Notes: a model not told the origin generated them from the letters alone. A stretch of DNA of 64,000 bases from Alphaproteobacteria bacterium (GCA_965216755.1 CBDCGL010000011.1:1664001-1728000), one strand, 5' to 3'. Positions 27,557-58,613 are shown, counted from the first letter of the stretch. Program-made: numbers and translations.

Positions 27557-29494
27557 ATGCTAAAGGCAATTCGGGACAGTGTGCTCCCCGCGATAAGCCG
27601 ACGAGACTTGCTCGGGGGTACCGCCAAGATCGCGACCATGGCTGGGCTCGGCGGCGCCACCGCCGCCGGGGTGGCCGGATTGATGGGCAGTGCCAGCAGT
27701 CAATCGAAAAGCGCCCATGCGGCCGACAATGACGCCTATATCGGCCCGGGTGATCTCGACGAATATTACGGCTTCTGGAGCAGTGGGCAGAGCGGCGAAG
27801 TGCGCATAATTGGCGTACCGTCGATGCGGGAGCTGATGCGCATTCCGGTCTTCAACCGCTGCAGCGCCACAGGGTGGGGCCAGACCAATGAGAGCCTACG
27901 AATCCTGACCGAGGGATTGTTACCGGAAACCAAGGAATTCTTGTCGACGCGGGGCCGCACCTTTCTCAATGGCGACGCGCATCATCCGCATATGTCGTTT
28001 ACCGATGGTACCTATGACGGGCGCTATCTATGGATCAATGACAAAGCCAATACCCGTGTCGCGCGTATTCGCTGCGATATTATGAAAGTCGACAAGATCA
28101 TTGAGATTCCCAACGCCGCCGACATCCACGGGCTGCGACCACAGAAGTATCCGCGCACCGGTTATGTGTTCGCCAATGGCGAACATCGGGTACCGATCCC
28201 CAACGACGGCAGCATCCTGGACGAACCGGACAAGTATCATGCCATCTTCACTGCCGTCGACGGCGATTCGATGGACGTAGCTTGGCAAGTGATCGTCGAC
28301 GGCAATCTTGACAATGTCGACGCGGACTACCAGGGCAAGTACGCAGTCTCGTCCTGCTATAATGGTGAAGAAGGTGTAAACCTGGCGGAAATGACCGCAA
28401 ACGAGCAAGATTGGGCGGTGGTTTTCAACATTGAGCGCATCGAAGCCGCTGTTGCTGCCGGTGACTATCAGGAAATCTCGGGTGTGCCGGTGCTCGACGG
28501 GCGCAAAGGCTCGCCCTATACACGCTATATCCCGGTTTCGAACAGTCCGCACGGCGTCAATACCTCGCCCGACGGCCAATACATCATGATCAACGGCAAA
28601 CTCTCGCCGACGGTCTCGGTGATTGACGTGACGCGCCTGGAAGATCTGTTTGATGACAAGATTGCGCCACGCGATGTCATCGTTGCAGAACCGGAGCTCG
28701 GTTTGGGCCCGCTTCACACCGCTTTCGACGGCGAGGGCAACGCCTTCACCACCCTGTTTCTTGATAGCCAGGTGTGCAAATGGAATGTTGCCGACGCGGT
28801 GCGTGCGTACGCCGGCGAGGATGTCGACCCGATAATTGAAAAAGTCGACGTGCAATATCAACCAGGCCACAATCATACCTCGATGGGTGAAACCAAAGAC
28901 GCAGACGGTCGCTGGTTGGTATCGCTCAACAAATTCTCAAAAGACCGGTTTCTCAATGTTGGTCCGCTCAAGCCGGAGAATGAGCAACTCATCGACATTG
29001 CGGGGGACAGCATGGCGGTGGTCCACGACGGCCCGACCTTTGGCGAACCGCACGATTGCATTATCGTGCATCGCTCCGTCGTCAACCCAAATCGCGTTTG
29101 GGACCGAAACGACGATTATTGGCGCGAAGCAAGCGCCTGGGCGGCGCAAGATGGCATCGATCTGGAGACGGCGGAACACGTCGTACGTGACGGTGACAAA
29201 GTGCGCGTTTACATGAACTCCATTGCGCCCAGCTTCAGCTTGGAATCGTTCACAGTGCGCCAAGGCGACGAGGTCACGGTGATTATCACCAACATGGATG
29301 ATATCGACGATCTGACCCACGGTTTCACGCTGGCCAATTATGGGGTTTGCTTCGAGATCGCGCCACAGGCCACCGCGTCGGTCACCTTCGTTGCCGATCG
29401 GCCAGGCGTGCACTGGTTCTATTGCCAGTGGTTCTGCCATGCTTTGCACATGGAGATGCGCGGCCGAATGATGGTTGAACCGCGGAGTGCGTAG
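27557..29494 (+). CDS. nosZ: Nitrous oxide reductase, clade I (Tat-exported)
   Basis: SRRDLL Tat motif; CuZ motifs DAHH, IHG, PHG, GPLH, QPGH, EPHD; Cu[17 protein letters not shown]. Confidence 0.98.
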
Positions 29495-29497
29495 CTG

Positions 29498-30775
29498 ATG
29501 CGTCGTCGCGGGTGTCAGGTGAGAAACGGGCTGCACGCGACTGTCGTCCTCATTGGCCTGATGATCGCCCCATCCGCGATGGCCGCAGACAATCTGGTGA
29601 CCGGCGGCCGCGATGCCTTGCGCAGCGCGGTCGCCGCCGCCGACGCGGGTGACAAAATCACCGTCGCCGCCGGGTCGTACAACGGTCCGATTGTGATCGA
29701 CAAGCCGCTGACTATTGTCGGACGCGCAGGCGCCATCGTCGATGGTGGCGGCAAGGGTCGCGTTCTTACGGTTTCCGCGCCCGATGTTATCCTGCGCGAG
29801 CTAACGATTCGGCATTCGGGTGGCGACTTGTTTGAAATGGATTCGGGGATTTTCGTCGATGTCGATGGCGACAGGGCGTTGATTGAAGCCAACAAACTGG
29901 AAGGAAATCTTTTCGGTATTTATCTTCAAGGCCCCGAAGACGCGGTCGTCCGCAACAATCACGTGGTCGGAAGGGATGACCTCCGCATGAGTGAACGCGG
30001 AAATGGCGTCTCCGTGTGGAACAGTCCAGGGTCACAGGTGCTTGGCAATCACTTTGAACAGGGCCGTGACGGCATATTCGTCAATACCAGCCGCGAAAAC
30101 AGCTTTCGTGACAACCACTTTGAGAACTTGCGTTTTGCAATTCATTACATGTACGCCGACGATAGCGAAGTGGCGCGAAACGTCTCGATCGGCAATCACG
30201 TCGGTTTCGCGTTGATGTTTTCAACCGGCCTCACAGTTCACAACAACATTTCTGTGGATGATCGCGATCGGGGCCTGCTGCTGAACTACGCCAACGAATC
30301 CGAGATCGTCGGGAACGCCGTCCGAGCTGGCCCTGAAAAATGTGTGTTCATCTACAATTCCTCAAAAAACGTTTTCAAACGCAATTACTTCGAAGGATGC
30401 GAAATTGGCGTCCATTTCACGGCGGGCTCGGAACGCAATTCCGTGACCGAAAACGCATTTATTGGCAATCGTACGCAAGTTAAATATGTCGGCACGCAAT
30501 GGTTGGAATGGTCCGTGGACGGCCGCGGCAATTATTGGAGCGATCATCCCGGATTTGACCTGGATGGTGACAGGATAGCCGAGGCGCCATATCGGCCCAA
30601 CGGCGTCGTTGATCGGTTGTTGTGGTCCCATCCGCTGGCAAAGACCCTGGTTACAAGTCCGGCGCTACAGTTCTTGCGCTGGATCCAGGCCCAATTTCCG
30701 GGCCTCCACCCGGGCGGCGTGGTCGACAGTGCGCCATTGATGTTACCTCCGGTCGCGGCGGGAGGTCCCGGATGA
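29498..30775 (+). CDS. nosD: NosD periplasmic maturation protein
   Basis: Beta-helix repeats; RGNG, GRDGI, IHYMY and GRGNYWSD motifs. Confidence 0.96.
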   Translation: MRRRGCQVRNGLHATVVLIGLMIAPSAMAADNLVTGGRDALRSAVAAADAGDKITVAAGSYNGPIVIDKPLTIVGRAGAIVDGGGKGRVLTVSAPDVILRELTIRHSGGDLFEMDSGIFVDVDGDRALIEANKLEGNLFGIYLQGPEDAVVRNNHVVGRDDLRMSERGNGVSVWNSPGSQVLGNHFEQGRDGIFVNTSRENSFRDNHFENLRFAIHYMYADDSEVARNVSIGNHVGFALMFSTGLTVHNNISVDDRDRGLLLNYANESEIVGNAVRAGPEKCVFIYNSSKNVFKRNYFEGCEIGVHFTAGSERNSVTENAFIGNRTQVKYVGTQWLEWSVDGRGNYWSDHPGFDLDGDRIAEAPYRPNGVVDRLLWSHPLAKTLVTSPALQFLRWIQAQFPGLHPGGVVDSAPLMLPPVAAGGPG

Positions 30776-31692
30776 ATCAGGCCGCGGTCGAATTCGTTGA
30801 CGTATCCAAAGCGTATGGGGCCCTGAGAGCTGTTGCCGGGGTCACTCTATCGGTGCCGCCCGGGCAGCGCTTGGCCTTGCTGGGACACAATGGCGCCGGC
30901 AAGACGACGCTCATGAAGCTTATCCTCGGGCTCACTCATGCGAGCGCCGGCGCGATCCGGCTATTTGGCGTCGAAGTTGATGCGCACAACATCGCCAGGC
31001 AGCGCCGCCAGGTTGGTTTTCTACCGGAGAATGTATCTTTTTACGGCGGCATGTCGGCGCGCCAAGTGTTGCGTTTCTACGCCCGGCTCAAGGGCGAGCC
31101 AGCCGCGCGCTGTGATTTCATACTCGAACAGGTGGGACTCTCAGACGCGCTTCGAAAGCCTGTGCGCACCTACTCGAAAGGCATGCGACAACGGCTCGGT
31201 CTGGCCCAAGCCTTGCTCGGCGCGCCCAACCTTCTGCTGCTCGATGAACCGACCTCCGGGCTGGATCCGGCTCTGCGACGCCATTTTTTTGACGTGGTCA
31301 CGGAGCTTGCCGCGGGCGGCTGCGCCGTCATGCTGTCGTCCCACGTGCTGACCGAACTTGAAACACGGACCGATCGGGCCGTCGTCATGAAGAACGGCCG
31401 CGTGATCGCCGATGGCTCACTCGCGGCGCTGCGGCGTGATGCGAATTTGCCGGTGCGCATTCGGCTGGCGGTGCCCCAGGGGCAAGCCGCCGCGATCGCC
31501 GAACGGGTCGACGCGGCGCACCCGACTTTGGTCAACGACCATGCCGTGCATTTGAGCTGCGCCAGTGTTGACAAAGTGAGCGTCGTGCGAAGGATACTTG
31601 ATCTCGGCGTGGCCATCGACGACTTGGATATCACGCCGCCAACGCTCGACGACATTTACGCATATTACCGCGACCGTGAGACATCAACATGA
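30772..31692 (+). CDS. nosF: NosF ABC ATPase
   Basis: GHNGAGKT, YSKGMRQR, LDEPTSGLD; start overlaps the nosD stop. Confidence 0.95.
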   Translation: MNQAAVEFVDVSKAYGALRAVAGVTLSVPPGQRLALLGHNGAGKTTLMKLILGLTHASAGAIRLFGVEVDAHNIARQRRQVGFLPENVSFYGGMSARQVLRFYARLKGEPAARCDFILEQVGLSDALRKPVRTYSKGMRQRLGLAQALLGAPNLLLLDEPTSGLDPALRRHFFDVVTELAAGGCAVMLSSHVLTELETRTDRAVVMKNGRVIADGSLAALRRDANLPVRIRLAVPQGQAAAIAERVDAAHPTLVNDHAVHLSCASVDKVSVVRRILDLGVAIDDLDITPPTLDDIYAYYRDRETST

Positions 31693-32519
31693 ACGCGATC
31701 GCCATCATAGCGGCCAAAGAAGCGCGCGATGGCTTGCGCAATCGCTGGGTCGTGGCAACGACATTGCTACTCGCGGCACTTTCGCTCTCGCTTGTCTTGA
31801 TGGGCAGCGCGCCGGCCGGCCCGCTTGGGGTGGATGCGGTCAGCATCACGGTTGTCAGCCTATCGAGCTTGACCATGTATTTGGTGCCGCTGATCGCGCT
31901 GATGCTGTCCTACGACGCCGTTGTCGCCGAAATCGAGCACGGCACGATGATGCTTCTGCTCGCATATCCGGTCAAACGCTGGCAGGTCATTGTCGGCAAG
32001 TTTACCGGCCATATGGTGCTTCTGACCTTGGCAACGACGCTGGGTTATGGCACGGCGGCGGTCGCGTTGATCCTGATGGACGGTTCCGCGACTAACGCGG
32101 GTTGGCGAGCATTTGCGGTCTTGATCGGTAGTTCTGTATTTCTCGGTGCCGTTTTCGTCGCCTGCGGCTATCTGCTCAGCAGTTTCGTCCGTGAGCGCGC
32201 AACCGCCGCTGGCCTCGCCGTTGCAGCGTGGTTGGTGCTGGTTCTCGTTTACGACCTGTTTCTGCTTGGTCTCTTGGTCGCCGACCAACAGCATGCCATC
32301 GGTGCCGACGTTTTTCCCGTTTTACTTTTGGCCAACCCCGTAGATACATACCGAATTATCAATTTGGCCGGTTTCGAAACTGTCGCCCAATTCTCCGGAT
32401 TGACGGGCATCGGTGCCCAGGCTGCGATTAGCGCCCCAACGCTCATCGCAGCGATGGGCGTTTGGGTGGTTTTGCCGCTTTTCGCCAGCATTGCGATATT
32501 CGCGCGCAGGGAACTATGA
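31689..32519 (+). CDS. nosY: NosY ABC permease
   Basis: KEARDGLRNRW and EIEHGTMMLLLAYP; about 6 TMs. Confidence 0.95.
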   Translation: MNAIAIIAAKEARDGLRNRWVVATTLLLAALSLSLVLMGSAPAGPLGVDAVSITVVSLSSLTMYLVPLIALMLSYDAVVAEIEHGTMMLLLAYPVKRWQVIVGKFTGHMVLLTLATTLGYGTAAVALILMDGSATNAGWRAFAVLIGSSVFLGAVFVACGYLLSSFVRERATAAGLAVAAWLVLVLVYDLFLLGLLVADQQHAIGADVFPVLLLANPVDTYRIINLAGFETVAQFSGLTGIGAQAAISAPTLIAAMGVWVVLPLFASIAIFARREL

Positions 32520-33055
32520 AAGCGATTTTTTCCCGACCGGTGCGTTTCGGCGTTGCCTTGTTGTTCGTGCTCGGCGCATGTGATGAAGCCGAGCTGATTG
32601 AAGCGCCGTCGCCCCAAGAGCCGACACGCGAATCGATCGGCTACTACTGCAACATGATTGTGCCCGATCATCCGGGACCAAAGGGCCAGATTTTTGTTGG
32701 TTCAGATAAAGAGCCGATTTGGTTCAGCTCGGTACGTGACACGATCGCGTTCATGCGCCTTCCGGAGGAACCGAAGAACATTCAAGGCGTCTATGTCAAC
32801 GACATGGGAAAGGCGCAAACCTGGGACCAACCGGAACCCGAAACCTGGATATCTGCACATGACGCATTTTACGTGATTCATAGCAGCCGCCGTGGCGGGA
32901 TGGGGGCAAAAGAGGCCGTTCCGTTTGGAACCGAAGCGGCGGCCCTCGCATTTGCCCAGGAACATGGCGGTCGGGTCGAAACGTTGGCGGATGTTCCGGA
33001 TGAGTATATTTTGGCGGCCGAGAACGGGCCGACACATTCGGGTTCTGACCATTGA
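32516..33055 (+). CDS. nosL: NosL copper chaperone lipoprotein
   Basis: Lipobox LGAC; CNM..HPGPKGQ and GGMGA motifs. Confidence 0.95.
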   Translation: MKAIFSRPVRFGVALLFVLGACDEAELIEAPSPQEPTRESIGYYCNMIVPDHPGPKGQIFVGSDKEPIWFSSVRDTIAFMRLPEEPKNIQGVYVNDMGKAQTWDQPEPETWISAHDAFYVIHSSRRGGMGAKEAVPFGTEAAALAFAQEHGGRVETLADVPDEYILAAENGPTHSGSDH

Positions 33056-47767: not shown

Positions 47768-48754
47768 ATGGTCGAAATCGGTGTCACAATGGGCGACCCA
47801 AGCGGGGTCGGGCCAGAAATTATCTGCAAGGCCTTGGCCGATTTGTCAGCCCAAGAACGTTCGCAAATTCTGGTCATCGGCAATATCAGCTTTCTCCAGC
47901 GCGCAAACGAGATCGTCGGCGCAAATTTGGCGTTCACGACCAACTCTGGCGAAGTCGGGCGCACACGTGTGGTCACGGTCGCGACACCGAAAATGGACGA
48001 AATCCGCGATAGTGTCATGACCGCAGGTGGTGGCCACGCAGCGTATGGCTATGTCACCCGCGCCGTCGAACTGGCCCAAGCAGGCGCCATCGCGGTTATC
48101 GTCACCGCTCCACTCAACAAGGCGGCCTTGCACGCCGCCGGCCACGAATATGACGGCCACACAGGGCTGTTACAGCATCTGACCCAAGCGCCATCGTCCT
48201 ATATGCTGCTTGCTTCTGAGGAACTGTCGACCATTCACGTTTCGACCCACGTTTCGCTTGCCGATGCCATCGCGCGATGTCGCAAACAGCGGGTCTTGGA
48301 CACAATCCAAGCCGGGAATGCGCACTTGCGGGCGCTTGGGTTGGCTGCGCCACGAATCGCAGTCGCCGGTCTGAATCCACATAGCGGCGAAGGCGGCATA
48401 TTCGGTCGCCAGGAAATCGATGAGATTGCACCCGCCGTTCAGGCCGCGTGTAATGCGGGGCTCAACGTTTCCGGACCATTTTCGGGTGACACGGTCTTTT
48501 ACCGCGCTGCCAAAGGCGAATTCGATCTTGTCGTCGCGCAATATCACGACCAAGGGCATATTCCGACCAAGCTGATCGCGTTCGACACCACTGTGAATGT
48601 CTCGCTCGGCCTGCCAATTCAACGCGCGTCGGTCGATCACGGTACTGCCTTTGACATTGCCTGGACAGGCAAAGCCGACCATACAAACATGCTGGCGGCC
48701 ATCGCGTATGGCCGCCGCATGGCGGCTGCAAAGCGCGCCAACGCGGCGGCTTAG
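47768..48754 (+). CDS. pdxA: PdxA-family dehydrogenase (PdxA2-type, catabolic by context)
   Basis: GDPSGVGPE, TAPLNK, GLNPHSGE, YHDQG and SVDHGTAFDIA motifs. Confidence 0.9.
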   Translation: MVEIGVTMGDPSGVGPEIICKALADLSAQERSQILVIGNISFLQRANEIVGANLAFTTNSGEVGRTRVVTVATPKMDEIRDSVMTAGGGHAAYGYVTRAVELAQAGAIAVIVTAPLNKAALHAAGHEYDGHTGLLQHLTQAPSSYMLLASEELSTIHVSTHVSLADAIARCRKQRVLDTIQAGNAHLRALGLAAPRIAVAGLNPHSGEGGIFGRQEIDEIAPAVQAACNAGLNVSGPFSGDTVFYRAAKGEFDLVVAQYHDQGHIPTKLIAFDTTVNVSLGLPIQRASVDHGTAFDIAWTGKADHTNMLAAIAYGRRMAAAKRANAAA

Positions 48755-48763
48755 TCTGTCCGC

Positions 48764-49969
48764 GTGCTTGCCGCCGGCCTTATCGCCGATGATCTAACCG
48801 GCGCCCTCGATTCGGGCGCGCCTTTTGCGCATAGATGTCTACGCACCCGCGTATTTGCGCGATTGGGTGAGACTGTCTTCGACATCCCGAAATCGGCCGA
48901 TGTTGTCGCCGTGAACACGGCGTCACGCCATGTCACAGCTGAACTGGCCGCCATCCTGGTGCAACGCGCATGCCGTACAATCATGGCAGCGGCGCCAGCT
49001 TTACTATTCAAGAAGATCGATTCAACGCTCCGCGGCAATGTTGTCGTGGAAACGCTTGCCGTCATGGCCGCCTGCGATCGGCCGTACGCGGTCGTGGCGC
49101 CTGCCGTACCAGCGCAAAATCGCATCGTCCGCAGCGGCTTGGTCTTGGTCGATGGCGTGCCCTTGGAACGGACCTCATTCGCAAGAGACGCGCTATCGGC
49201 GCCGCTTCGCGCACCTCTCGAAAACCAGTTCAAGTCGGCCGCACCAAGTATCGCTGTTACGGTCGGCACGACCCCGCCTAAGTCGGTGGCGAATCGTCAG
49301 GTTTGGATCGCCGACGCGGAAACCGATCAGGATTTGCGTGTGATCGCGGCTTGGGCCGACGATTGCAGGGATCAGGTATTGCTGGTCGGCGCGGCCGGAC
49401 TGGCCCACGCCACGGCTGCGGCAAGTTTCCCCCAAGCGCAGCGCGCGCTAACGCGTATCGCCGCGCCTTTTCGGACGCTGTTCGTGGTCGGTTCGCGCGC
49501 ACCGGTCAGCCGGGCCCAACTCGCGTACCTTACCCACCATGACTCCACCTGCACGATGATGCGCGCCGCGCGCGGCCACTTCTCGGTCGCGCATGGGGCT
49601 CGTGCGCTCAAGCCGGCGGCGGCGAGATTGGCGATTGCCGTACCCGAGAGCCCCACAGGCGATGCAACAACGGTTGCCACCGACCTCGCCCGGAACGTCG
49701 CCGCGCTACTCGCACGCAGCGCTGCAGACGGCGTGCGGCCAGCAGTGGTCGTTGTCACGGGCGGTGATATTGCGGTGGCATTGCTCGATGCCCTGGGCCA
49801 TGCCAGTCTCGACTTGATCGACGAGCTGCGCCCGGGAATTCCGCTCAGTCGCTTGGACCTGGACGGCGCACCGCTGTGGCTGGTGAGCAAGGCTGGTGGA
49901 TTTGGCACTGAGCGCCTATTTGTGGAGCTGCCTGCGATTCTCGCCGGCCTTGGCGGCGACACGCAGTAA
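48764..49969 (+). CDS. Four-carbon acid sugar kinase (DUF1537 family)
   Basis: ADDLTGA, KKIDSTLRGN, TGGD and KAGGFG motifs. Confidence 0.9.
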   Translation: MLAAGLIADDLTGALDSGAPFAHRCLRTRVFARLGETVFDIPKSADVVAVNTASRHVTAELAAILVQRACRTIMAAAPALLFKKIDSTLRGNVVVETLAVMAACDRPYAVVAPAVPAQNRIVRSGLVLVDGVPLERTSFARDALSAPLRAPLENQFKSAAPSIAVTVGTTPPKSVANRQVWIADAETDQDLRVIAAWADDCRDQVLLVGAAGLAHATAAASFPQAQRALTRIAAPFRTLFVVGSRAPVSRAQLAYLTHHDSTCTMMRAARGHFSVAHGARALKPAAARLAIAVPESPTGDATTVATDLARNVAALLARSAADGVRPAVVVVTGGDIAVALLDALGHASLDLIDELRPGIPLSRLDLDGAPLWLVSKAGGFGTERLFVELPAILAGLGGDTQ

Positions 49970-49978
49970 GGAGACACC

Positions 49979-50728
49979 ATGAATACTTTGGACCTTCGCG
50001 ACCGTGACGCGATTATCACAGGCGGGGCGAGCGGCATCGGGCGCGAAACGGCGGTTCGGATGGTCGCCTCGGGTGCACGCGTCGCGCTATGGGATCGGAA
50101 CGCGGATGCGGCCAAGACCGCCGCCGCAGAGATCGGCGGCGACAATGCCCTCGGAATCGCAGTCAACGTCGGCGACGCCGACTCGATCGCCCATGGGCTT
50201 GATGCGACGGTGCGCGCGTTCGGAAAGGTCGACATTTTGGTCAACAGCGCTGGCGTCGCCGGTGACAATTACACGCTATGGGAAACACCCATCGAAGAAT
50301 GGCAACGCGTTATCAACATCAATTTGAACGGCGTGTTTCTGTGCTGTCGCGCCGTCGTGCCGACCATGATCGCCGCGGGATATGGTCGTATCGTCAATAT
50401 CGCTTCGATTGCCGGCAAGGAAGGCAATCCGAAGGCGGCCCACTACAGCGCGTCGAAGGCCGGTGTCATCGGCCTCACGAAATCGTTGGGCAAAGAGCTG
50501 GCAACCAAAGGTGTGATCTGCAATTGCGTCACACCAGCACTAATCAGAACACCGATCATGGCCCAAAATAGTGAAGAGCATAATCGTTTTATGGCGGAGA
50601 AAATTCCCATGCAACGTCTTGGTAATGCGCAAGAAGTCGCCGCGCTCATTACATGGTTGGCATCCGAGGATTGCTCATTTTCGACTGGTGCGGTTTTTGA
50701 CATCTCGGGCGGCCGCGCAACCTATTAG
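49979..50728 (+). CDS. SDR oxidoreductase (sugar-acid dehydrogenase-like)
   Basis: TGGASGIG, YSASK and FSTGAVFDISGGRATY motifs. Confidence 0.9.
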   Translation: MNTLDLRDRDAIITGGASGIGRETAVRMVASGARVALWDRNADAAKTAAAEIGGDNALGIAVNVGDADSIAHGLDATVRAFGKVDILVNSAGVAGDNYTLWETPIEEWQRVININLNGVFLCCRAVVPTMIAAGYGRIVNIASIAGKEGNPKAAHYSASKAGVIGLTKSLGKELATKGVICNCVTPALIRTPIMAQNSEEHNRFMAEKIPMQRLGNAQEVAALITWLASEDCSFSTGAVFDISGGRATY

Positions 50729-50792: not shown

Positions 50793-51509
50793 GTGAAACT
50801 TCGCCGTCCACTCGTATTCGGCACGATCGTGGTGGGCGTATCTGTGCTGGCCGGTTTCGCGGTACGCCACACCTATTACGCAGGTCTGTGGCGTTTTAAC
50901 TACCCAGCCGTCGGCGATTTTCCAGTCCAGGGATTGGATGTCTCGCATCACCAAGGGCCCATAGACTGGCCAGCCGTACCAGCCGGACGTTTCAAGTTCG
51001 TCTACATCAAGGCCACCGAAGGTGGTGATTTCCGCGACTCGCGGTTTCATGAAAACTGGCGCGGCGCACAGGAAGCCGGGTTGCGGGTTGGCGCATACCA
51101 TTTCTTCACCCTGTGCCGGCCGGGCGCTGATCAAGCTCAGAATTTCATCGACGTGGTGCCCGTGGTCGATGGCGCGCTGCCGCCCGTTGCCGACCTTGAG
51201 TTCGGCGGCAATTGTTCCCGACGACCACCACAAAACCTCATCGTCAACGAATTGCGCGACTTTACGGACCGGCTCGCGGCGCACTACGGCACGCATCCGA
51301 TTCTTTATGTAACAGACGAATTCTTTGTCCACTATATCGCCCGCAGTCTGTTTGCTGATTATGCGATGTGGGCCCGCAATCTATTTGGCCAGCCGGACCC
51401 AGATCTGTTTCCAGACTGGTTGATTTGGCAATTTGCAAACAATGGTCGCGTGCCTGGCATCACTGGCCGTGTCGACCTCAACGCGTGGCGTCCCGCGACG
51501 TCCGACTGA
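50793..51509 (+). CDS. GH25 muramidase (lysozyme) with N-terminal anchor
   Basis: GLDVSHHQG, IKATEG, GAYHFF, DLE and GRVDLN motifs; start estimated. Confidence 0.9.
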   Translation: MKLRRPLVFGTIVVGVSVLAGFAVRHTYYAGLWRFNYPAVGDFPVQGLDVSHHQGPIDWPAVPAGRFKFVYIKATEGGDFRDSRFHENWRGAQEAGLRVGAYHFFTLCRPGADQAQNFIDVVPVVDGALPPVADLEFGGNCSRRPPQNLIVNELRDFTDRLAAHYGTHPILYVTDEFFVHYIARSLFADYAMWARNLFGQPDPDLFPDWLIWQFANNGRVPGITGRVDLNAWRPATSD

Positions 51510-51523
51510 CCGATCGTCGACGG

Positions 51524-52117
51524 TCAGTTGGCCGGACTTGTCTGCGTCAGCGTATAGACCAAATCTGCGAGGTCCGCGAAAACCGACACGGGCAATGCGA
51601 CAATGATTTGCGCACCTTCGACCATCGCATATTGTTGCGCGCGGTCGGCGGTCATGGACCCGCCGGCCAGCTTTAGAAATGGCCGGTCGTTGGCGTCGGA
51701 GAACAACATGATCAAGGCACCGGAGTGCGCCACGCCATATGCAGCGCTTTGGTCGGCCAACGCAACGATTTCGGCAACGGTCGACTGCGCAAAGGACTTC
51801 AAACTTCGTTCGATTTCAAAAGCAACCTGAGGATCGCCCGCGTGACTGTGGCCAGTCGCACCGCCGGTCTCCCCATGGGCATGGAAATACCATCCCCCGT
51901 CCGTCGTCCGTTCAAACCGGTGCAGACGATCTTCCAGAATAATTTCCACGCTCTTTACCTGTGCCGCCGGCACGGTCATCAGCGGTATGCGGCTTCGGTC
52001 ACCGTTGCGGGGTTTCGCTGCAACATCGAAGAGCTCTGGTCCGAATGCGCGCATGGCCCCATAGGCCGCCACGGCACTGACCAAAGCCAACAGGCCAAGG
52101 ATGAACCACAGGCGCAT
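51524..52117 (-). CDS. Membrane-anchored DUF4340-like protein with a His-rich loop
   Basis: N-terminal TM; WYFHAHG..GHSH and AAYGV; resembles the upstream gene product. Confidence 0.6.
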   Translation of the reverse strand: MRLWFILGLLALVSAVAAYGAMRAFGPELFDVAAKPRNGDRSRIPLMTVPAAQVKSVEIILEDRLHRFERTTDGGWYFHAHGETGGATGHSHAGDPQVAFEIERSLKSFAQSTVAEIVALADQSAAYGVAHSGALIMLFSDANDRPFLKLAGGSMTADRAQQYAMVEGAQIIVALPVSVFADLADLVYTLTQTSPAN

Positions 52118-52173
52118 CTTCCCGCCCTCAACCCAAAAAGACTCGGCCGCACTGCAACCTGTGACGCTCTGCC

Positions 52174-52815
52174 CTATTTCGCGACCGCGTCTTGCCTCAA
52201 TTCCGGCATGGGTGTCGGCGCGTTCTCCTCGCCAAACACAAGCGCCAGTAGTAAGGCAATGTAATAGCGCGGAATCAGTGAAATTTCCGGATCGCCATCG
52301 CGCATTGTGTAATATGTATAATTGGTCGGCAAAAGATCTCCGACATAAAGAAGATCAAGCGGCTGCGCATAGTCTACGCCATCCGCGCCCAGGCCGTAAA
52401 ACGCAATCATGGCTTGCGGATTGGTCAGTCCATAGGCGGCCATATCCTGTTCCGGCTTGATTTTGCGATCCACCAACAGGCTTGCGGTCAAGGCAATCTG
52501 TTTCGCGATCTTGTTGGCCTGCTCTGGCACGGACATATGTTGATCGGTACCTGCGGGTGCGATATCACCGCCGCTGTGGCTATGCGACGCATCGTGCTGA
52601 AACCAGCGCCCTTGATCATCTCGCATCAGTGACACAAACTGGCCCTGGTACATAACTTCGACCGCACCCAATTCAGGCTCGGCAAAGCTGAATATGGGAA
52701 ACCGGCCGGTCGGCGCTGGCGGTTCGGAATCGAAAAACGTCGTCTTCTCCATCGCGACCACGGTCCCCACCAGAACCAGCAACAGGGACCAAACAACAAT
52801 CAGCCGCACACGCAT
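52174..52815 (-). CDS. Membrane-anchored DUF4340-like protein with a His-rich loop
   Basis: N-terminal TM; WFQHDASHSH and AYGLTNP; follows the GldG-like gene. Confidence 0.65.
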   Translation of the reverse strand: MRVRLIVVWSLLLVLVGTVVAMEKTTFFDSEPPAPTGRFPIFSFAEPELGAVEVMYQGQFVSLMRDDQGRWFQHDASHSHSGGDIAPAGTDQHMSVPEQANKIAKQIALTASLLVDRKIKPEQDMAAYGLTNPQAMIAFYGLGADGVDYAQPLDLLYVGDLLPTNYTYYTMRDGDPEISLIPRYYIALLLALVFGEENAPTPMPELRQDAVAK

Positions 52816-52826
52816 GCCGTGCCGCC

Positions 52827-54461
52827 CTATCGCTGCCGCCACCACACGGCCGTACCTAATATGGCAAGCACAGCCGGCATCAAGAAGACCGACAGAAAAA
52901 ATGTCCCTTTGATTTGGCGATTGGTGACGCTGATACCGGGCAAGTCATATGTGCGCGGCTCAATACCGATCAGATTCTCCTGTGCCGCGAGATAGCTCAC
53001 CGTATTCAGAAACAGGTTGCCATTGCCCAGGAAATGGAAGAAAGAATTGGTCGCAAAATCTGAATCACCGACGACCGCAATACGTGATTCACCGCGTACG
53101 TCCGCTTGGGCCGGAATAATTTGTTGTCCGGCCGCCGCCTCCGCGCTCTGTGGGCCGAGCTGCACCGCTGCGGGGCTATTGGGATCGACCGGCTTGCGCG
53201 TTGCCAGGACCATCAAAGTCTGAGGCCCGGCGACATCGCGCCCTGGTTCAAAATCGGCGCGGTCCTCTGTCGTTTCGCCGAAACTATCCTGTGACGAACT
53301 GACCAGCGGAACAACGCTCACACCTTGAATTCGTTCCGTCGGCGCCAAAGACCGCACACCCGGGTAGAACGTTAGCGGCAAGTCGCGTGTGATTTGGTGG
53401 ATGTTGTAACTGGTCACGGCCGGCGAGGACCTGTCAGCCCAATAGTGGCTCTTCTCATCAATAACGATTGTGTCTTGAAGGGCCACACCGTAATCCCGAA
53501 TGATCGGTTCCAAACCCGATTGAATGAAGGGGTCGAGCATGAAGAAAGCGTTACCGCCATCAAGCAAGTAGTCACGGACTATAGCAATCTCGTGGTCCAA
53601 CAAGGCCGTCTTCGGCCCTGCAACGATCAAGAGAGCGCACCCCGCCAGCGGGTCGCCACCCTGCAACAAGGTGACCTTCTCCACAGTGTAATTGACCGTT
53701 TCAAGACCGTGCCGTGCCTTGGCCAGCCCATGGGTTTGGTGGAGCACATATTGCGCCCCCAATCCATGGGAATGGTTGCCCTTGCCTTCCGTATGGTCGT
53801 GCGATTCCTTGCTGAACGGGTCGGCCTCACCATGACCATCCGAAAAACACACCAGCTGCTTGGCACCTTGGGTGACGCGTAGAATGCCGTTGGCGATGTC
53901 GGTCTCCGTACCGCCGTGGACTTGCAGCTTGCGGTCTTCACTTTGCATCACCGCCGTGCCGGCGAATTGGACACCCATGAGCCGTGCCTGCGCCGGGTTG
54001 ACGGTCGGGTCGTGAAACTCCACCGTGACCAAATCGGAATGGCTCGCCATGAGCTGATAAAGCTCCACAGACTCCTTGAGCATGCGATCGTGAAAGAACA
54101 CGATATGTACGGGCTTGGCCAACCGTTTCAGCATCTGTAGTGTTGAATCCGAGAGCGAATGCAGCCCGGCTTCCGTCATGTCGTAGCGCAACGGATAGCG
54201 CAGCGACAAATAGCCAATCGCGCACATCACACCGACGATCCCCAATGTGAAAAGCGCGATTTCGCCCCGCCTTTGACGAACGAGGGCCGCAAAGTCGTGG
54301 CGCAGGCCAAAGGCACCCCACGCCACCACCACGGCGCCAATAATGGTCAACACCGTGATCCAGGTGCCTGGATCTTGATAGATCATGCGCAAGCCGTAGG
54401 ACGCGCCCAAAAGGGTGAGTCCAAACAGCAAAATCAAGCCGAAACGGTGTCCCGGATCCAT
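52827..54461 (-). CDS. GldG-like ABC auxiliary membrane/periplasmic component
   Basis: Three N-terminal TMs; RYDMT..HSLS, GHGE, VAGPK, VVGDSDF and GNLFLN; C-terminal TM ending WWRQR. Confidence 0.85.
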   Translation of the reverse strand: MDPGHRFGLILLFGLTLLGASYGLRMIYQDPGTWITVLTIIGAVVVAWGAFGLRHDFAALVRQRRGEIALFTLGIVGVMCAIGYLSLRYPLRYDMTEAGLHSLSDSTLQMLKRLAKPVHIVFFHDRMLKESVELYQLMASHSDLVTVEFHDPTVNPAQARLMGVQFAGTAVMQSEDRKLQVHGGTETDIANGILRVTQGAKQLVCFSDGHGEADPFSKESHDHTEGKGNHSHGLGAQYVLHQTHGLAKARHGLETVNYTVEKVTLLQGGDPLAGCALLIVAGPKTALLDHEIAIVRDYLLDGGNAFFMLDPFIQSGLEPIIRDYGVALQDTIVIDEKSHYWADRSSPAVTSYNIHQITRDLPLTFYPGVRSLAPTERIQGVSVVPLVSSSQDSFGETTEDRADFEPGRDVAGPQTLMVLATRKPVDPNSPAAVQLGPQSAEAAAGQQIIPAQADVRGESRIAVVGDSDFATNSFFHFLGNGNLFLNTVSYLAAQENLIGIEPRTYDLPGISVTNRQIKGTFFLSVFLMPAVLAILGTAVWWRQR

Positions 54462-54462
54462 A

Positions 54463-55170
54463 TCAGCGCCGCCACTGCAAATAGCTGGTGTTCAATGTCA
54501 AAGCCACCACGCACACGATCAAATAGAACGTGACGGCCTCAGATCGGATCAAGCCTTGAACAAACTCGCCAAAGTGTAGCGAGAATGACAAATACCCGAA
54601 CAGCGTATGCAAAAAATATGATGACTGGAACGTTTGCAAATGGGCGACAAACCAAAACGCCAGCAACACAGAAACAGTGATCAACGCCGCCACGATTTGG
54701 TTGGAGGTCAAAGAAGAAAAGAATTGGCCAACCGCCAAGCACGCCATACCGAGCAGCACGAATCCGATGTAGCCGCAAAAGATTGTCGATGTTTCGGGCT
54801 GGGCAAACAGATATAGTGGGATGAGATCTATCATGGTGCCCACCGTCGCCAACAGCAGGATTGTCACCGCACCCAGATACTTGCCCAGCACCACTTGCCA
54901 GGGTCGCAACGGCAATGTCTGCAACAGCTCCATCGTCCGGTCGCTATATTCGGTCGCGAACAAGCGCATGGAAATGACCGGGCTCAGGACAATCAGCAAT
55001 ATGCCCATATTCTGAAATGTCTCAGCCATCGTCGCCAAATTGGTCAAGAAAATGTTGTACGTGAAAAAATATCCCGTCCCAATCAGGAACACGGCCACGA
55101 CAAAATACGCGATGGGCGAGCGAAAATAGTGCCACATCTCTTTTTCATAGACGGCAAGAACACCTCTCAT
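54463..55170 (-). CDS. ABC-2 type permease (GldF-like)
   Basis: KE..YFRSPIAY, MRLFATE..TMELL.TLP, LGKYLG and TSNQIVA motifs. Confidence 0.9.
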   Translation of the reverse strand: MRGVLAVYEKEMWHYFRSPIAYFVVAVFLIGTGYFFTYNIFLTNLATMAETFQNMGILLIVLSPVISMRLFATEYSDRTMELLQTLPLRPWQVVLGKYLGAVTILLLATVGTMIDLIPLYLFAQPETSTIFCGYIGFVLLGMACLAVGQFFSSLTSNQIVAALITVSVLLAFWFVAHLQTFQSSYFLHTLFGYLSFSLHFGEFVQGLIRSEAVTFYLIVCVVALTLNTSYLQWRR

Positions 55171-56129
55171 GCGGCCAAATCCTGAGACTGGGCAGTGCCA
55201 ACATAGTGCAGAAACACGTTCTCCAAAGTCGGCAATCGGCGCTCTAGCCTGAGCAAATCCCATCGCGGCGCTACGGTGCGGGCGATCGCCGCTTCAATTC
55301 CGTCGCGGTCATCGACGATGCATTCCACATCCAAGCCCTGGCGGCCCGTCGCTCCGACTGCATCTTCGAAATGCACGCTATTGACGCCGTCAACCGACAA
55401 AAGTTCCTGTCGTATGTCGTCGACCGGTCCGGTCACCCGCAAGGCAATATGATTGGTGCGTTCGACCGCCCGCTGTAGCCCGGCTGGCGTGTCGATCGCC
55501 AACAGTCGCCCTTGATAAATGATGGCGACACGCGCACAAATCATGGTCACTTCCGGCAAAATATGGGTGCTCAACAGCACCGCGTGATCCGCCCCGAACG
55601 AGCGTATGACATCCCGCGTTTCGTGCGTTTGACCAGGATCCAAGCCGATTGTCGGCTCGTCCAACAACAACACATCGGGCTTGCCCAATAGTGCCTGGGC
55701 TAATCCGACGCGCTGCCGGTATCCTTTGGAAAGCTTAAATATCTCTCGGCGACGGACTTGTTCCAAGTGGCAGGCCGCCGTAACCCGATCAAGTTCCGAC
55801 GAAATCTCGCCGCGCGGCACACCCTTGGCCTTCGCGACAAAGCGTAAATAGCCGGTTACATCCAGTGTCTCGTACAGCGGTGGGTGTTCGGGCAAATAAC
55901 CAATGTGCTGCGCAGCTGCGGAATTCTCCGTTGCCATATTGTAGCCGGCCACTCTGACCGTGCCAGAGCTGGCGGTCGTGTAACCCGCAATCATCCGGAT
56001 TGTGGTCGTCTTGCCGGCCCCGTTCGGACCAAGGAACCCCAAAATCTCGCCCTTATCCACAGCAAACGACAAACCGTGGATGATGGTCTTGGTCCCATAG
56101 CGCTTCGTCACCGAATCAAGCGCAATCAT
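55167..56129 (-). CDS. ABC ATP-binding protein (GldA-like)
   Basis: GPNGAGKT, LSKGYRQR, LDEPTIGLD and STHILPEV motifs. Confidence 0.93.
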   Translation of the reverse strand: MIALDSVTKRYGTKTIIHGLSFAVDKGEILGFLGPNGAGKTTTIRMIAGYTTASSGTVRVAGYNMATENSAAAQHIGYLPEHPPLYETLDVTGYLRFVAKAKGVPRGEISSELDRVTAACHLEQVRRREIFKLSKGYRQRVGLAQALLGKPDVLLLDEPTIGLDPGQTHETRDVIRSFGADHAVLLSTHILPEVTMICARVAIIYQGRLLAIDTPAGLQRAVERTNHIALRVTGPVDDIRQELLSVDGVNSVHFEDAVGATGRQGLDVECIVDDRDGIEAAIARTVAPRWDLLRLERRLPTLENVFLHYVGTAQSQDLAA

Positions 56130-56167
56130 TAATCCGTCGCGTTATCCTGCAATGTCCCAAAAGCACA

Positions 56168-56193
56168 GGAGGCCTCCGAAACCGAAGGCCTCC
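56168..56193 (-). terminator. Stem-loop or partial intrinsic terminator after the lactonase gene
   Basis: Minus strand GGAGGCCTTCG-GTTT-CGGAGGCCTCC (11-bp stem) followed by TGTGCTTTT. Confidence 0.6.
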
Positions 56194-56214
56194 AAAACCG
56201 CAATATTCAACGGG

Positions 56215-57066
56215 TTAGTCGTACCATTTCTCGCCCATTGATTCATACTGCTTGATGCTGTGGCCAAACCACATCGGCGCGTCTTCCAATGCGCTCGTCA
56301 TCTTCAGCCGCTCAACCGAGTTAAAATAGTCAAGAACGCTGTAATTCAATCCGGCTGGGTGACCTTCTAGGTTCTCTTCCATCCAAATCGCATCTTGGGT
56401 CAGGATCACGGTGCCGGTATTCGGCAATTTGACCTTGACCGACTGATGTCCAAACGTGTGACCGGGCGTGCTCATGATCATGACGGTGCCGTCACCGAAA
56501 AGGTCATAGTCGCCGTCCAGCGCGAAGTAGTTGAAATCGCGCGCATCATCGTAGTCGGCCATGATATGGGCGCCACTCGGGCGTTGGAACTTCTCGGGCC
56601 ACCAGGCCTGGTACAATTCTTTTTGCTGGATCACGTGGATCGCATTCGGGAACATTTCAATGTTACCGATATGATCCAAATGTGAATGAGACGTGATCAC
56701 CACTTTGACGTCGTCGGTGCTGTAACCCAGTTTTTCCAGCTGCTTGTCAATCACGTCGTCGCGCGTTTGACCCGGCTGCAAGAAGTCGCAAGACCCCTGC
56801 GCCCAATGCGTATTACACGCGCCGTCCGAAATCGCCACATTGTTGCCGGTATCATATACAACAACGCCATTCGGATGGTCCAAGATCCACATGTTGATCG
56901 GGATCTTGATGTCGCGCGCTTCAGGATAAGTCGGAATCAGTCCCTGAATGTTAAATGGTCCAAATTGCCCACTGGCAGTCCAGTAAAGTTTTTGCGCTGA
57001 TGCTGTCGATGCGCCTGTCATACAAAGCGCGCCCAACACCGCTGCAGCGATACCCAATTTTCTCAT
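56215..57066 (-). CDS. Exported metallo-beta-lactamase-fold hydrolase, AiiA/AttM lactonase family
   Basis: Sec signal MRKLGIAAAVLG..ASA; DTG, HSHLDH, DLFGDG, TPGHT and C-terminal GH; AGGA RBS. Confidence 0.88.
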   Translation of the reverse strand: MRKLGIAAAVLGALCMTGASTASAQKLYWTASGQFGPFNIQGLIPTYPEARDIKIPINMWILDHPNGVVVYDTGNNVAISDGACNTHWAQGSCDFLQPGQTRDDVIDKQLEKLGYSTDDVKVVITSHSHLDHIGNIEMFPNAIHVIQQKELYQAWWPEKFQRPSGAHIMADYDDARDFNYFALDGDYDLFGDGTVMIMSTPGHTFGHQSVKVKLPNTGTVILTQDAIWMEENLEGHPAGLNYSVLDYFNSVERLKMTSALEDAPMWFGHSIKQYESMGEKWYD

Positions 57067-57370
57067 GGCTTCCTTCCTAACGATCAAGGCTCCACGCGTC
57101 TTCGCGCGGCTCTTTGTCTCTTTTCCAGCAGCTCGATACGCCGTCCGTTTCCCACGGCAACTTTGAACGAGGATCTGTTCGTCCTCCGACATCTCAGAAA
57201 ACAAATAAACTTGCGATCTACCGCGCGATCCCCTGAGCTGGTTGCGGCGCCGACATTTTAACCATGTTTCTTACTGAAAAGGGAACGATTTTTCTGGCTT
57301 ACCCAGGCCACCCCTCGGCTCGTTCGGATCCCCATTGGTCGTGACCACAAACGATTTCTCGCCCGTTCGC

Positions 57371-57691
57371 TCAGATCTTGACGACCGGCAACCTCGGGGC
57401 CTGGCAAATAAGGGCGGACGCCGGCACCGAGCATGGCCCCCAGCGCAGCTCGATCCCAGCCGCAGCCAGACGCGCCGCCGATGCGTCGTCAACAAATCCG
57501 ATAATCACCGTTTGCGGCTGCGAACGGCAAATCAAGTCAACAACGTGATCCGCAGTCCGCTCAACATTTCGCAAGAAGTGTTGTTGGTTGCTCGAAACAT
57601 CAAACACACCAACCCACCGCGCGCGGGCGAAAAAGGGCGAAAGTGGCGCGTCGTTAGCATCCGCTAACAACGTCATCGCGATGCGTTTCAA
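57371..57691 (-). CDS. NifB/NifX-like (FeMo-cofactor-binding family) small protein
   Basis: MKRIA.., LSPFFARA (compare SxHFGRA) and RLAAAGI; TTG start. Confidence 0.6.
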   Translation of the reverse strand: MKRIAMTLLADANDAPLSPFFARARWVGVFDVSSNQQHFLRNVERTADHVVDLICRSQPQTVIIGFVDDASAARLAAAGIELRWGPCSVPASALICQAPRLPVVKI

Positions 57692-57848
57692 CAGACCGCC
57701 ATAAGATGATAGAGTTAACGTCGCTTGATGCGAGAGGATGCGAGTAACAATGTGGGCGTGCCTTGATCCACGTTAGCGTTGTGACAGGCGTGCCGATATG
57801 TGGAGCGTCGCCAGCCGCGATAACGCGGCGGCACGACATTGTGAACAT

Positions 57849-58613
57849 ATGGATGTGTTGAGAAACGCGGTGCCGATTGCAGGAGCTCGGGCCGAGAACC
57901 CGTGCGCGGCATGTCTGGTCCGCCAATGGGCGATTTGCCAGCCGCTGGACGATGAAGCCCTGCACCTGATGAAATGCCTGAAATCTCGAGACCGGCTCAT
58001 CACAGCTGGCAGCGAACTTTACGCGGAAGGAGAGCCGCTCGACGACCTATTCACAATACTCGAAGGCTGGCTGATTCTTTATAAGCTGTTGGAAGATGGG
58101 CGTCGGCAGATCACGAAAGTCGGACTGTCCGGCGATTTCATTGGTTTTCGACCGGATCTAAAAGCACCAATGGACCATTCCGCGCAAGCGCTGACCGACG
58201 TGAAATTATGCGTTTTTCCGCGAGAAACGATCATGAGCCTGTTTCGCGAACAACCGGAACTGGCCATGCGGCTTACTTGGCTGATTTCCAGCGACATCAT
58301 GGTTGCACGCGAGCGGTTGACCAGCCTAGGGCGGCGCACAGCGCGAGAACGAATCTCTTATTTCTTGCTTGAGTTGTATTATCGCGTTCGACTACGTCAC
58401 AGCGATCCGGTGGGTACCGCGATTCCCTTACCGCTGACACAGGAACATATCGGCGATGCTCTAGGCCTGACTTCGGTCCACGTTAACCGCACGTTGCGGG
58501 CGCTACGCGAAGACAACCTGATCCAGGTCGTTAATCGCACGTTGCACATTCTCGATCCCGACAAGCTCGCCGATGCGGCCGGCTTTGATGAAAATCAACG
58601 TGTCGACATTTAG
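57849..58613 (+). CDS. Crp/Fnr regulator, probably O2-sensing (FnrN-like)
   Basis: N-terminal CAAC..C, DGRRQI, LCVF Cys, LGRRTARER and HTH LTQEHIGDALGLTSVHVNR. Confidence 0.9.
   Translation: MDVLRNAVPIAGARAENPCAACLVRQWAICQPLDDEALHLMKCLKSRDRLITAGSELYAEGEPLDDLFTILEGWLILYKLLEDGRRQITKVGLSGDFIGFRPDLKAPMDHSAQALTDVKLCVFPRETIMSLFREQPELAMRLTWLISSDIMVARERLTSLGRRTARERISYFLLELYYRVRLRHSDPVGTAIPLPLTQEHIGDALGLTSVHVNRTLRALREDNLIQVVNRTLHILDPDKLADAAGFDENQRVDI

Follow-up and report, generated by a model that had tools for sequence, protein, structure and literature searches.

A widespread bacterial gene cassette joining an exported metallo-beta-lactamase-fold hydrolase to a His-decorated GldAFG/DUF4340-type ABC system

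Introduction

The present work deals with a cluster of six genes at positions 51524-57066 of a 64,000-nucleotide stretch of DNA from an alphaproteobacterial genome (Alphaproteobacteria bacterium, GCA_965216755.1, CBDCGL010000011.1:1664001-1728000), here called the window. The genes lie in a row on the minus strand, all in the same direction, and encode an exported hydrolase of the metallo-beta-lactamase (MBL) fold, an ATP-binding cassette (ABC) ATPase, an ABC-2 permease, a GldG-like membrane protein and two short DUF4340-like proteins, with a terminator-like hairpin behind the hydrolase gene. An earlier note, made from the sequence of the window alone, had listed the same genes and hairpin, had quoted His-rich strings from the three accessory proteins, and had proposed a dedicated apparatus for supplying metal to a secreted lactonase. 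The gene content, the hairpin and the three strings are all present as it described. In related genomes, the enzyme gene and the ABC genes form a tight and widespread unit, and Cys/His-rich loops in the accessory proteins accompany the enzyme. Considering all comparative facts together, the most economical reading is that of a machine analogous to the one that supplies copper to nitrous oxide reductase. Parts of the cassette belong to known families. A full-text literature search, made partly by title or abstract start, found no report in print of the cassette, of its His decoration or of its tie to an exported MBL.

Gene organization of the locus

The MBL gene stands first and starts with an ATG at 57066, ahead of which lies the ribosome site AGGAAGGA. 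From one ABC gene to the next, the stop codon overlaps or almost adjoins the following start codon; the true permease start is likely near 55170, overlapping the ATPase stop. As the earlier note had remarked, no gene for a solute-binding protein occurs among the six genes or adjoining them. The coordinates of all features are collected in Table 1, where the signal-peptide cleavage site of the MBL was placed by eye from the translation.

The GldG-like protein reaches 82.3 bits with PF09822 (cut-off 34.7), and the first DUF4340 paralog (DUF4340a) reaches 31.1 bits with PF14238 (gathering cut-off 25). The product of the sixth gene (DUF4340b) had no match in the Pfam scan, and its single-copy orthologs match PF14238 with E-values of 4e-7 to 6e-3. 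Four of six related DUF4340 proteins attain the 25-bit cut-off (25.2-41 bits), whereas those of loci L005 and L017 stay below it with 18 and 17.3 bits, respectively.

Table 1. Features of the cluster, with positions counted from the first nucleotide of the window
Feature	Position	Strand	Basis
Exported MBL-fold hydrolase (AiiA/GcL/AttM-like), 283-aa precursor	56215..57066	-	Pfam Lactamase_B 1.7e-13
Sec-type signal peptide of the MBL, ~24 residues	56995..57066	-	Translation; AxA cleavage site, no twin arginine, no lipobox
Intrinsic-terminator-like hairpin and T-rich tail in the MBL/ATPase spacer	56158..56193	-	Best such site in 51000-57800
ABC ATPase, GldA/NosF/DrrA-like	55167..56129	-	Pfam ABC_tran 4.8e-29; TIGR03522 GldA 252.4 bits
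ABC-2 permease, GldF/NosY-like	54463..55263	-	Pfam ABC2_membrane_2 4.4e-9; TIGR03518 GldF 125.6 bits
GldG-like membrane protein with large periplasmic domain (thioredoxin-like and GIFT)	52827..54461	-	PF09822 4.8e-23 and DUF7088
Cys- and His-rich insert of the GldG-like protein, residues ~205-250	53712..53849	-	Conserved Cys/His
Short DUF4340 paralog a, N-terminal anchor and periplasmic domain	52174..52845	-	PF14238 3.4e-7
His loop of DUF4340a, residues 81-103	52537..52605	-	Conserved His
Short DUF4340 paralog b (sixth gene)	51524..52117	-	BLASTP to paralog a 3e-9
His loop of DUF4340b, residues 76-92	51842..51892	-	W76/H81/H92 conservation

The exported MBL-fold hydrolase

The binuclear metal site of the MBL, HxHxDH followed by H, D and H, is complete in the window protein, and its ligands (H127, H129, D131, H132, H203, D225 and H269) are invariant in an alignment of 36 orthologs. 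Five of these 36 segments are cut at the N-terminus, and all 31 that include it begin with a signal peptide lacking the twin arginine. The mature N-terminus of the window protein coincides with the start of the AiiA chains in PDB alignments. Its closest solved structures belong to the group of GcL, AaL and AiiA (E 1e-30 to 1e-25), the GcL lactonase being the best match with 1.3e-30 over a full-length alignment. The nearest NCBIfam models are AttM, AiiA, AhlS and 4-pyridoxolactonase.

The earlier note had simply called the enzyme a lactonase, a premise that is weaker than it was put there. The protein remains far below the equivalog cut-off of each of these models, for instance those of AttM (165.3 vs 390), AiiA (120 vs 375) and AhlS (118.1 vs 475), and the catalytic Tyr of GcL, which follows the bridging Asp and which we take to be Y194 of AiiA, aligns to a Trp. 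All close orthologs have Trp at this position and Tyr appears only in distant ones (L084-L087); two Cys are also conserved in the close orthologs. The MBL is thus an exported subfamily of its own within the lactonase clade, for which lactonase is a reasonable guess at a name. The premise of export through Sec stood, but exported MBL lactonases are already known, since passages of PMC11112094 describe MzmL, which has a predicted signal peptide and clusters with MomL and Aii20J. The full set of HxHxDH-H-D-H ligands is shared with AiiA, AttM, GcL and MomL, and secretion with some members of the family (PMC11112094, in part); what sets the cassette enzyme apart from them, besides its low equivalog scores, its Trp and the two Cys of the close orthologs, is the obligatory link to an ABC machine.

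Most of the MBL orthologs end with G-x-x-W-Y (or W-H) at or near the C-terminus, which corresponds to 56215-56235 in the window. The PDB lactonase alignments end before this motif, and it may be a docking tag. Additionally, one Burkholderiales locus has a second MBL paralog behind the cassette (L046:5991-6767), which is 34% identical to the window protein.

Linkage and distribution of the cassette

A search with the GldG-like protein gave 1312 matches among 8000 candidates scored; among the matches listed, 119 besides the window's own are 61-69% identical to the window protein. A genome scan, with one genome per species, yielded 80 loci, of which 45 come from Burkholderiales/Betaproteobacteria, 17 from Rokubacteria/Methylomirabilota, four from Alphaproteobacteria, two from Gammaproteobacteria, two from Entotheonella and 10 from less defined lineages. 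Almost all of the carriers are metagenome-assembled genomes. An MBL ortholog, 55-83% identical to that of the window, lies on the same strand directly upstream of the ATPase in every one of the 63 loci that could be evaluated, that is, with at least 1 kb of sequence upstream of the ATPase; the rest comprise six loci with a partial MBL at the contig end and 11 that are too short. The reverse test, a metagenome scan seeded with the MBL alignment, likewise gave 80 loci. Where the downstream sequence extends to 500 nt or more, the ATPase adjoins the MBL in 66 of 68 loci, and GldG is present in each of the 33 loci where it extends to 4.2 kb or more.

Within the window's own class the system is rare, as only eight of 301 sampled genomes have any GldG-like match. 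Seven distant class relatives were fetched; six of them carry the MBL upstream of the ATPase (GldG identity 30-56%) and the seventh has no MBL within 7 kb upstream. The linkage is thus near-absolute and not sporadic, a possibility that the earlier note had weighed against its own proposal, and the single unlinked relative also differs in its GldG protein, as described below. The number of short DUF4340 proteins varies, being two in alphaproteobacterial loci, including the window, and one (type b) in most other lineages.

Clustering of all open reading frames (ORFs) in 81 loci found nothing conserved across lineages beyond the cassette and a permease gene, HupE2, which is treated below. The flanks vary and contain lineage-specific neighbours named by eye, among them RadC-like and desaturase-like genes and a pyrroloquinoline quinone (PQQ) dehydrogenase, and the same clustering detected no conserved regulator gene in them. 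In the window, the cluster is bordered downstream by a convergent GH25 muramidase gene, and a divergent gene for a Crp/Fnr-type regulator lies upstream. The cassette is therefore a tight, widespread unit. Its distribution is patchy although members from different phyla are highly identical, which suggests that the unit has spread horizontally, and its lower G+C content, 0.52-0.59 in 51500-57000 against 0.60-0.66 in the pdxA-side genes at 48000-50500, is consistent with acquisition by transfer. A PQQ-dependent dehydrogenase-like gene, named by eye, recurs ~6 kb downstream of GldG in 15 loci (e.g. L043:15468-17204), which is probably lineage synteny.

His- and Cys-rich loops of the accessory proteins

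The insert in the periplasmic domain of the GldG-like protein is strictly conserved. All 30 close homologs share C205, H210, H221, H230, H232 and H244, and at least 90% of them have H223 and H241. The insert is kept in all six distant MBL-linked class relatives and is wholly missing in the one class relative without an MBL. A wider control was provided by a PF09822 scan of 301 genomes of the phylum, of which 127 had a match, and 40 places, picked by hand down the ranking, were taken. The ATPase adjoins in all 40, and neither an AiiA-like MBL nor a HupE2 gene occurs in the flanks of any. In the segment aligned to residues 203-256 of the window GldG, the MBL-linked proteins have 54-57 residues with 6-8 His and one Cys, whereas the 41 unlinked proteins (the 40 phylum loci and the one class relative) have 17-44 residues with 0-2 His and no Cys. 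The 40 places include a control from the same genome, outside the window, namely a second GldAFG-type locus of canonical form (G000:C11:4649779-4650795, L176), which has neither the His insert in its GldG nor an MBL neighbour. When GldG relatives were clustered at 50% identity, the 150 best representatives comprised 27 with at least five His in the 50 residues from a GHGE-like motif and 93 with fewer; the motif was not found in 30. The His-decorated GldG proteins accordingly form a diverse but bounded subfamily. Three of the cluster representatives (P0128, P0133 and P0141) are intermediate forms, in which the insert is kept and several His are replaced by Asp or Glu.

The DUF4340 proteins carry a loop of the pattern W-aromatic-x-H ... 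H-x-H. In an alignment of 32 sequences, W76 and H81 (DUF4340b numbering) are invariant and H92 is conserved in at least 90%. In a first-pass alignment of the DUF4340a loop, all 42 sequences have H84 and 40 of them have H103, and the pattern was upheld in the later alignment. The 341-residue DUF4340 protein of an unlinked system (L088) has no His at all in the equivalent loop. The His loops are no product of chance, because they are conserved across phyla and absent from the GldG/DUF4340 systems that have no MBL link. Both the conservation and the specific co-occurrence of His-insert homologs with signal-peptide MBLs, which the earlier note had left to be checked, are thus borne out, the insert being missing in 41 of 41 unlinked GldG loci.

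The AlphaFold 2 model of GldG has a predicted local distance difference test (pLDDT) score of 66, and its top Foldseek match is the N-terminal domain of IFT52 (1.6e-6); the Foldseek matches comprise only IFT52 GIFT and thioredoxin-like folds and nothing metal-specific. The model of DUF4340b is better (pLDDT 87), with no Foldseek match at E of 0.001 or below and a best VIA Z of 6.4, which is within the tool's common range. A complex prediction for the mature MBL and the GldG periplasmic domain scored 0.00 without controls, and counts as evidence for neither side.

The HupE/UreJ-2 permease and the link to metal

In many related loci, the cassette is extended by a gene for a HupE/UreJ-2 permease (HupE2). 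Among the 59 genome loci of sufficient length, 36 have it directly behind DUF4340, and it comes after the cassette in 20 of 26 metagenome loci. The family call was made with PF13795, which matched in six of six proteins tested (E 1e-12 to 3e-48). The protein consists of a signal peptide, an extracytoplasmic domain with a mature N-terminal His in five of seven aligned sequences, and a HupE/UreJ-2 membrane domain with an H-x5-D-H motif. Neither the N-domain nor a profile of HupE2 had a match among the PDB sequences of the copy searched, for which the presence of 9GCE, the entry of PMC12537917, was not checked. No PF13795 gene is present in the genome studied here (99.82% complete) or in the window.

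According to passages of PMC12537917 (2025), N-terminal-His domains fused to PF13795 permeases bind Cu2+ with a dissociation constant of 74 nM and Ni2+ with one of 220 nM, and their proposed role is the capture of metal on behalf of the permease. These "Anglerase" Ang-1/Ang-2-HupE/UreJ-2 fusions resemble the proteins of the related loci in their signal peptide, N-terminal His, extracytoplasmic domain and PF13795 domain. Their neighbours as listed in that paper (DUF4198, indigoidine A-like and PfkB) are unlike the cassette, and the terms lactamase, ABC transporter and DUF4340 do not occur in its main text (main text only, supplements aside). The recurrent HupE/UreJ-2 gene is a metal link independent of the His loops. 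Some involvement of the accessory proteins with metal is rather probable, more so than the full function proposed below.

A metal link need not make the enzyme the beneficiary. The cluster could be a metal homeostasis system that takes up, buffers or expels Zn, Ni, Co or Cu by means of the His loops and HupE/UreJ-2, with the MBL as an accessory and not as a client, for instance as a periplasmic metal store or as the opener of a lactone- or ester-containing metallophore. One stand-alone MBL ortholog would fit such a role, in that the convergent gene behind its terminator (L155:2170-3515) appears to encode a heavy-metal-type resistance-nodulation-division (RND) efflux pump, a family name assigned by eye. 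The conserved His/Cys loops and the permease gene of 36 of the 59 loci, whose relatives are proposed to serve metal capture and assimilation (PMC12537917, in part), agree with it as well. The MBL, with 55-83% identity and a full catalytic metal site, is nevertheless the most conserved and most constant member of the cassette, while HupE2 is dispensable, and the flanks contain no metal-responsive regulator and the Rfam scans no riboswitch. Import is not a known function of ABC-2 systems that lack a binding protein. On balance, we regard metal homeostasis with an accessory enzyme as an unlikely role for the cluster.

Spacer hairpin and leader RNA

The hairpin between the MBL and ATPase genes (56193-56168 in the window) has 11 pairs, eight of them G-C, followed by a T-rich tail. 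The spacer has a median length of 85 nt in the related loci, and measures only 3-28 nt in four of them. A perfect GC-rich stem of at least seven pairs occurs in 68 of 74 spacers compared with seven of 148 size-matched coding controls, and a stem with T-rich tail in 60 of 74 compared with none of the 148. The hairpin is conserved in position and not in sequence. We infer that the terminator is a device for making much enzyme and little machine.

The same terminator might instead mark the end of a separate transcription unit, so that an ordinary secreted quorum-quenching lactonase of N-acyl homoserine lactones (AHL) would be followed by an unrelated ABC operon. The best matches of the MBL are indeed AHL lactonases, and secreted MBL lactonases exist (PMC11112094, in part). 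Yet the enzyme and the ABC genes adjoin in all 63 genome loci and in 66 of the 68 metagenome loci, across several phyla, while their other surroundings vary, and the four shortest spacers leave little between them. Moreover, an ordinary AHL lactonase would not be expected so far below the equivalog cut-offs, nor with Trp for the catalytic Tyr in the close orthologs. Since the His insert and the enzyme co-vary, two unrelated operons are hard to hold as an explanation and seem very improbable.

The leaders of the MBL genes were compared as well. Burkholderiales-type leaders of ~130-160 nt (20 aligned, including L123, L015 and L119), with which the window stretch 57067-57200 was compared, have in common a 7-bp helix formed over a long range and a CC.CC stretch able to pair with the ribosome-binding GGAGG, and many other lineages have an ACCACC-like stretch 10-15 nt ahead of the MBL ribosome site. 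None of the 11 predicted pairs has a compensatory change, and single-sequence folds disagree. Rfam gave nothing at E of 1 or below in 51000-58000 of the window, and nothing at gathering score in nine related loci. A role of the leader as a cis-regulatory RNA is accordingly no more than possible.

Comparison with known systems

The earlier note had suggested for the cluster the same logic as that of nosZ-nosDFYL, which lies in the same window; nosZ and nosD were verified there, and the nos cluster spans ~27557-33055. The NosDFY ABC complex takes part with NosL in the periplasmic copper supply to nitrous oxide reductase. Within the nos system, NosL delivers Cu to this enzyme, as stated in passages of PMC8457098. 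Both nos and the cassette combine an ABC-2 ATPase with a NosY-type permease without any solute-binding protein, both have periplasmic accessory proteins, and in both the gene of the client metalloenzyme comes first. The cassette permease matches the window's NosY-position ORF in BLASTP (7e-7), and the GldA model also picks up the NosF-position ORF. The shared logic, proposed for the cassette by analogy, would be ATP-driven delivery of metal outside the cytoplasm. The parts differ in that the NosD beta-helix is replaced by a GldG/GIFT-domain protein (PF09822) and DUF4340 (PF14238), and in that no NosL-like lipoprotein is present, the candidate ligands being the His/Cys loops. The client also differs, being a Tat- or Sec-exported copper enzyme in nos and a Sec-exported MBL hydrolase in the cassette. 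The reading of the earlier note is partly supported, namely by the comparative evidence, the HupE/UreJ-2 gene, the positional terminator and the homology to NosY, whereas the transfer of metal to the enzyme is the part that we infer.

The other relatives are the systems composed of GldA, GldF, GldG and ABC_transp_aux/DUF4340. They have the same Pfam families and the same order of ATPase, permease, GldG-like protein and DUF4340. The GldAFG gliding transporter is a system of Bacteroidota, however, whereas the carriers of the cassette are Proteobacteria, Rokubacteria and Entotheonella, and the cassette proteins miss the equivalog cut-offs of TIGR03522 (252.4 vs 402.6), TIGR03518 (125.6 vs 288.5) and TIGR03521 (44.1 vs 389.85). 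Unlike the wider GldG systems, the cassette has a GldG with a Cys/His insert of ~25 aa, and its DUF4340 proteins are short (~200 aa vs 341 aa in L088) and His-decorated. Furthermore, an MBL gene always stands ahead of its ATPase.

Export of a substrate must also be considered. The ABC-2/GldG/DUF4340 complex might move an organic molecule, lipid-linked or containing a lactone or ester, across or out of the inner membrane, where the periplasmic MBL would hydrolyse it for activation, detoxification or recycling, and the His loops would be structural or substrate-binding. An ABC-2 fold with GldAFG-type architecture is typical of exporters, and the tight linkage of enzyme and transporter suits one shared pathway equally well. 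Such a pathway leaves unexplained, however, why an insert with a Cys and 6-8 His is limited to MBL-linked GldG proteins, why DUF4340 has matching His loops and why a HupE/UreJ-2 gene recurs, and the clustering of ORFs in the 81 loci found no conserved biosynthetic genes nearby. Hence we consider substrate export to be decidedly unlikely.

Proposed function

Our preferred reading is that the six genes are one functional cassette encoding an ATP-driven periplasmic metal-handling machine that serves the exported hydrolase. By analogy to NosDFY(L), we give it a probability of roughly 0.45. The first gene would supply, in abundance, a binuclear metallohydrolase that belongs to the AiiA/GcL lactonase clade and is exported through Sec, and owing to the terminator behind it only a fraction of the transcripts would reach the machine genes. 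The GldA-like ATPase and the GldF/NosY-like permease would form an ABC-2 complex in the inner membrane. Its periplasmic accessories, the GldG-like protein and one or two short DUF4340 proteins, would bind a transition metal, conceivably Zn, Ni, Co or Cu, with their Cys/His-rich loops. ATP hydrolysis in the cytoplasm would then drive conformational changes in the periplasmic parts, by which metal may be passed to, or proof-read in, the newly exported apo-enzyme; this direction of transfer, the contact with the enzyme that it implies and the identity of metal and substrate are all presumed. In most other lineages, HupE/UreJ-2 with its N-terminal-His capture domain would belong to the same unit and join the machine to the metal pool of the cell. 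In the boldest form of this reading, which we put forward only tentatively, a GldAFG-type complex that has acquired Cys/His loops would use cytoplasmic ATP to load or correct the metal of a Sec-exported binuclear MBL, the first case of a hydrolase served by an ATP-powered metallochaperone machine in the periplasm. Such a complex could enforce a metal (for example Ni, Co, Mn or Fe) that would otherwise be outcompeted by Zn or Cu there.

Several points weigh against this reading. Metal binding by the loops and contact between enzyme and machine are putative, and the GldG insert is modelled as disordered, with pLDDT below 50 for residues 222-241. Periplasmic metallo-beta-lactamases, moreover, are not known to depend on a dedicated machine for their Zn. 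The passages of PMC11112094 on exported MBL lactonases mention no such partner, and since such enzymes are already known, export alone does not imply a dedicated loader. The HupE/UreJ-2 permease is not obligatory, because it is missing from 23 of the 59 loci and from this genome. Two of the 68 MBL orthologs have no ABC genes downstream, the next gene being a ribosomal protein gene in one case and the convergent RND pump gene in the other. No metal-responsive RNA known to Rfam was found in the window or the nine loci, and no conserved regulator gene in the flanks. Additionally, the 40 control loci are a hand-picked and not a random sample, and related genomes are non-independent observations.

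Significance

The supply of the right metal to exported metalloenzymes outside the cytoplasm is a largely unsolved problem beyond a few copper systems. The cassette is a compact unit of five to seven genes, widespread in soil and marine bacteria, in which a simple, assayable enzyme is tied to an ABC complex of its own. The candidate ligand residues of this complex are obvious, and the question is directly testable. For the use of MBL lactonases in quorum quenching, it may mean that members of this subfamily need their partner genes for activity in another host. If the proposed function is true, it would be the first one assigned within GldG and DUF4340, for one subfamily of these proteins, and would offer a first mechanistic handle on the large families, whose members outside Bacteroidota are frequent but uncharacterised. 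Likewise, the principle of NosDFY would then extend beyond copper enzymes.

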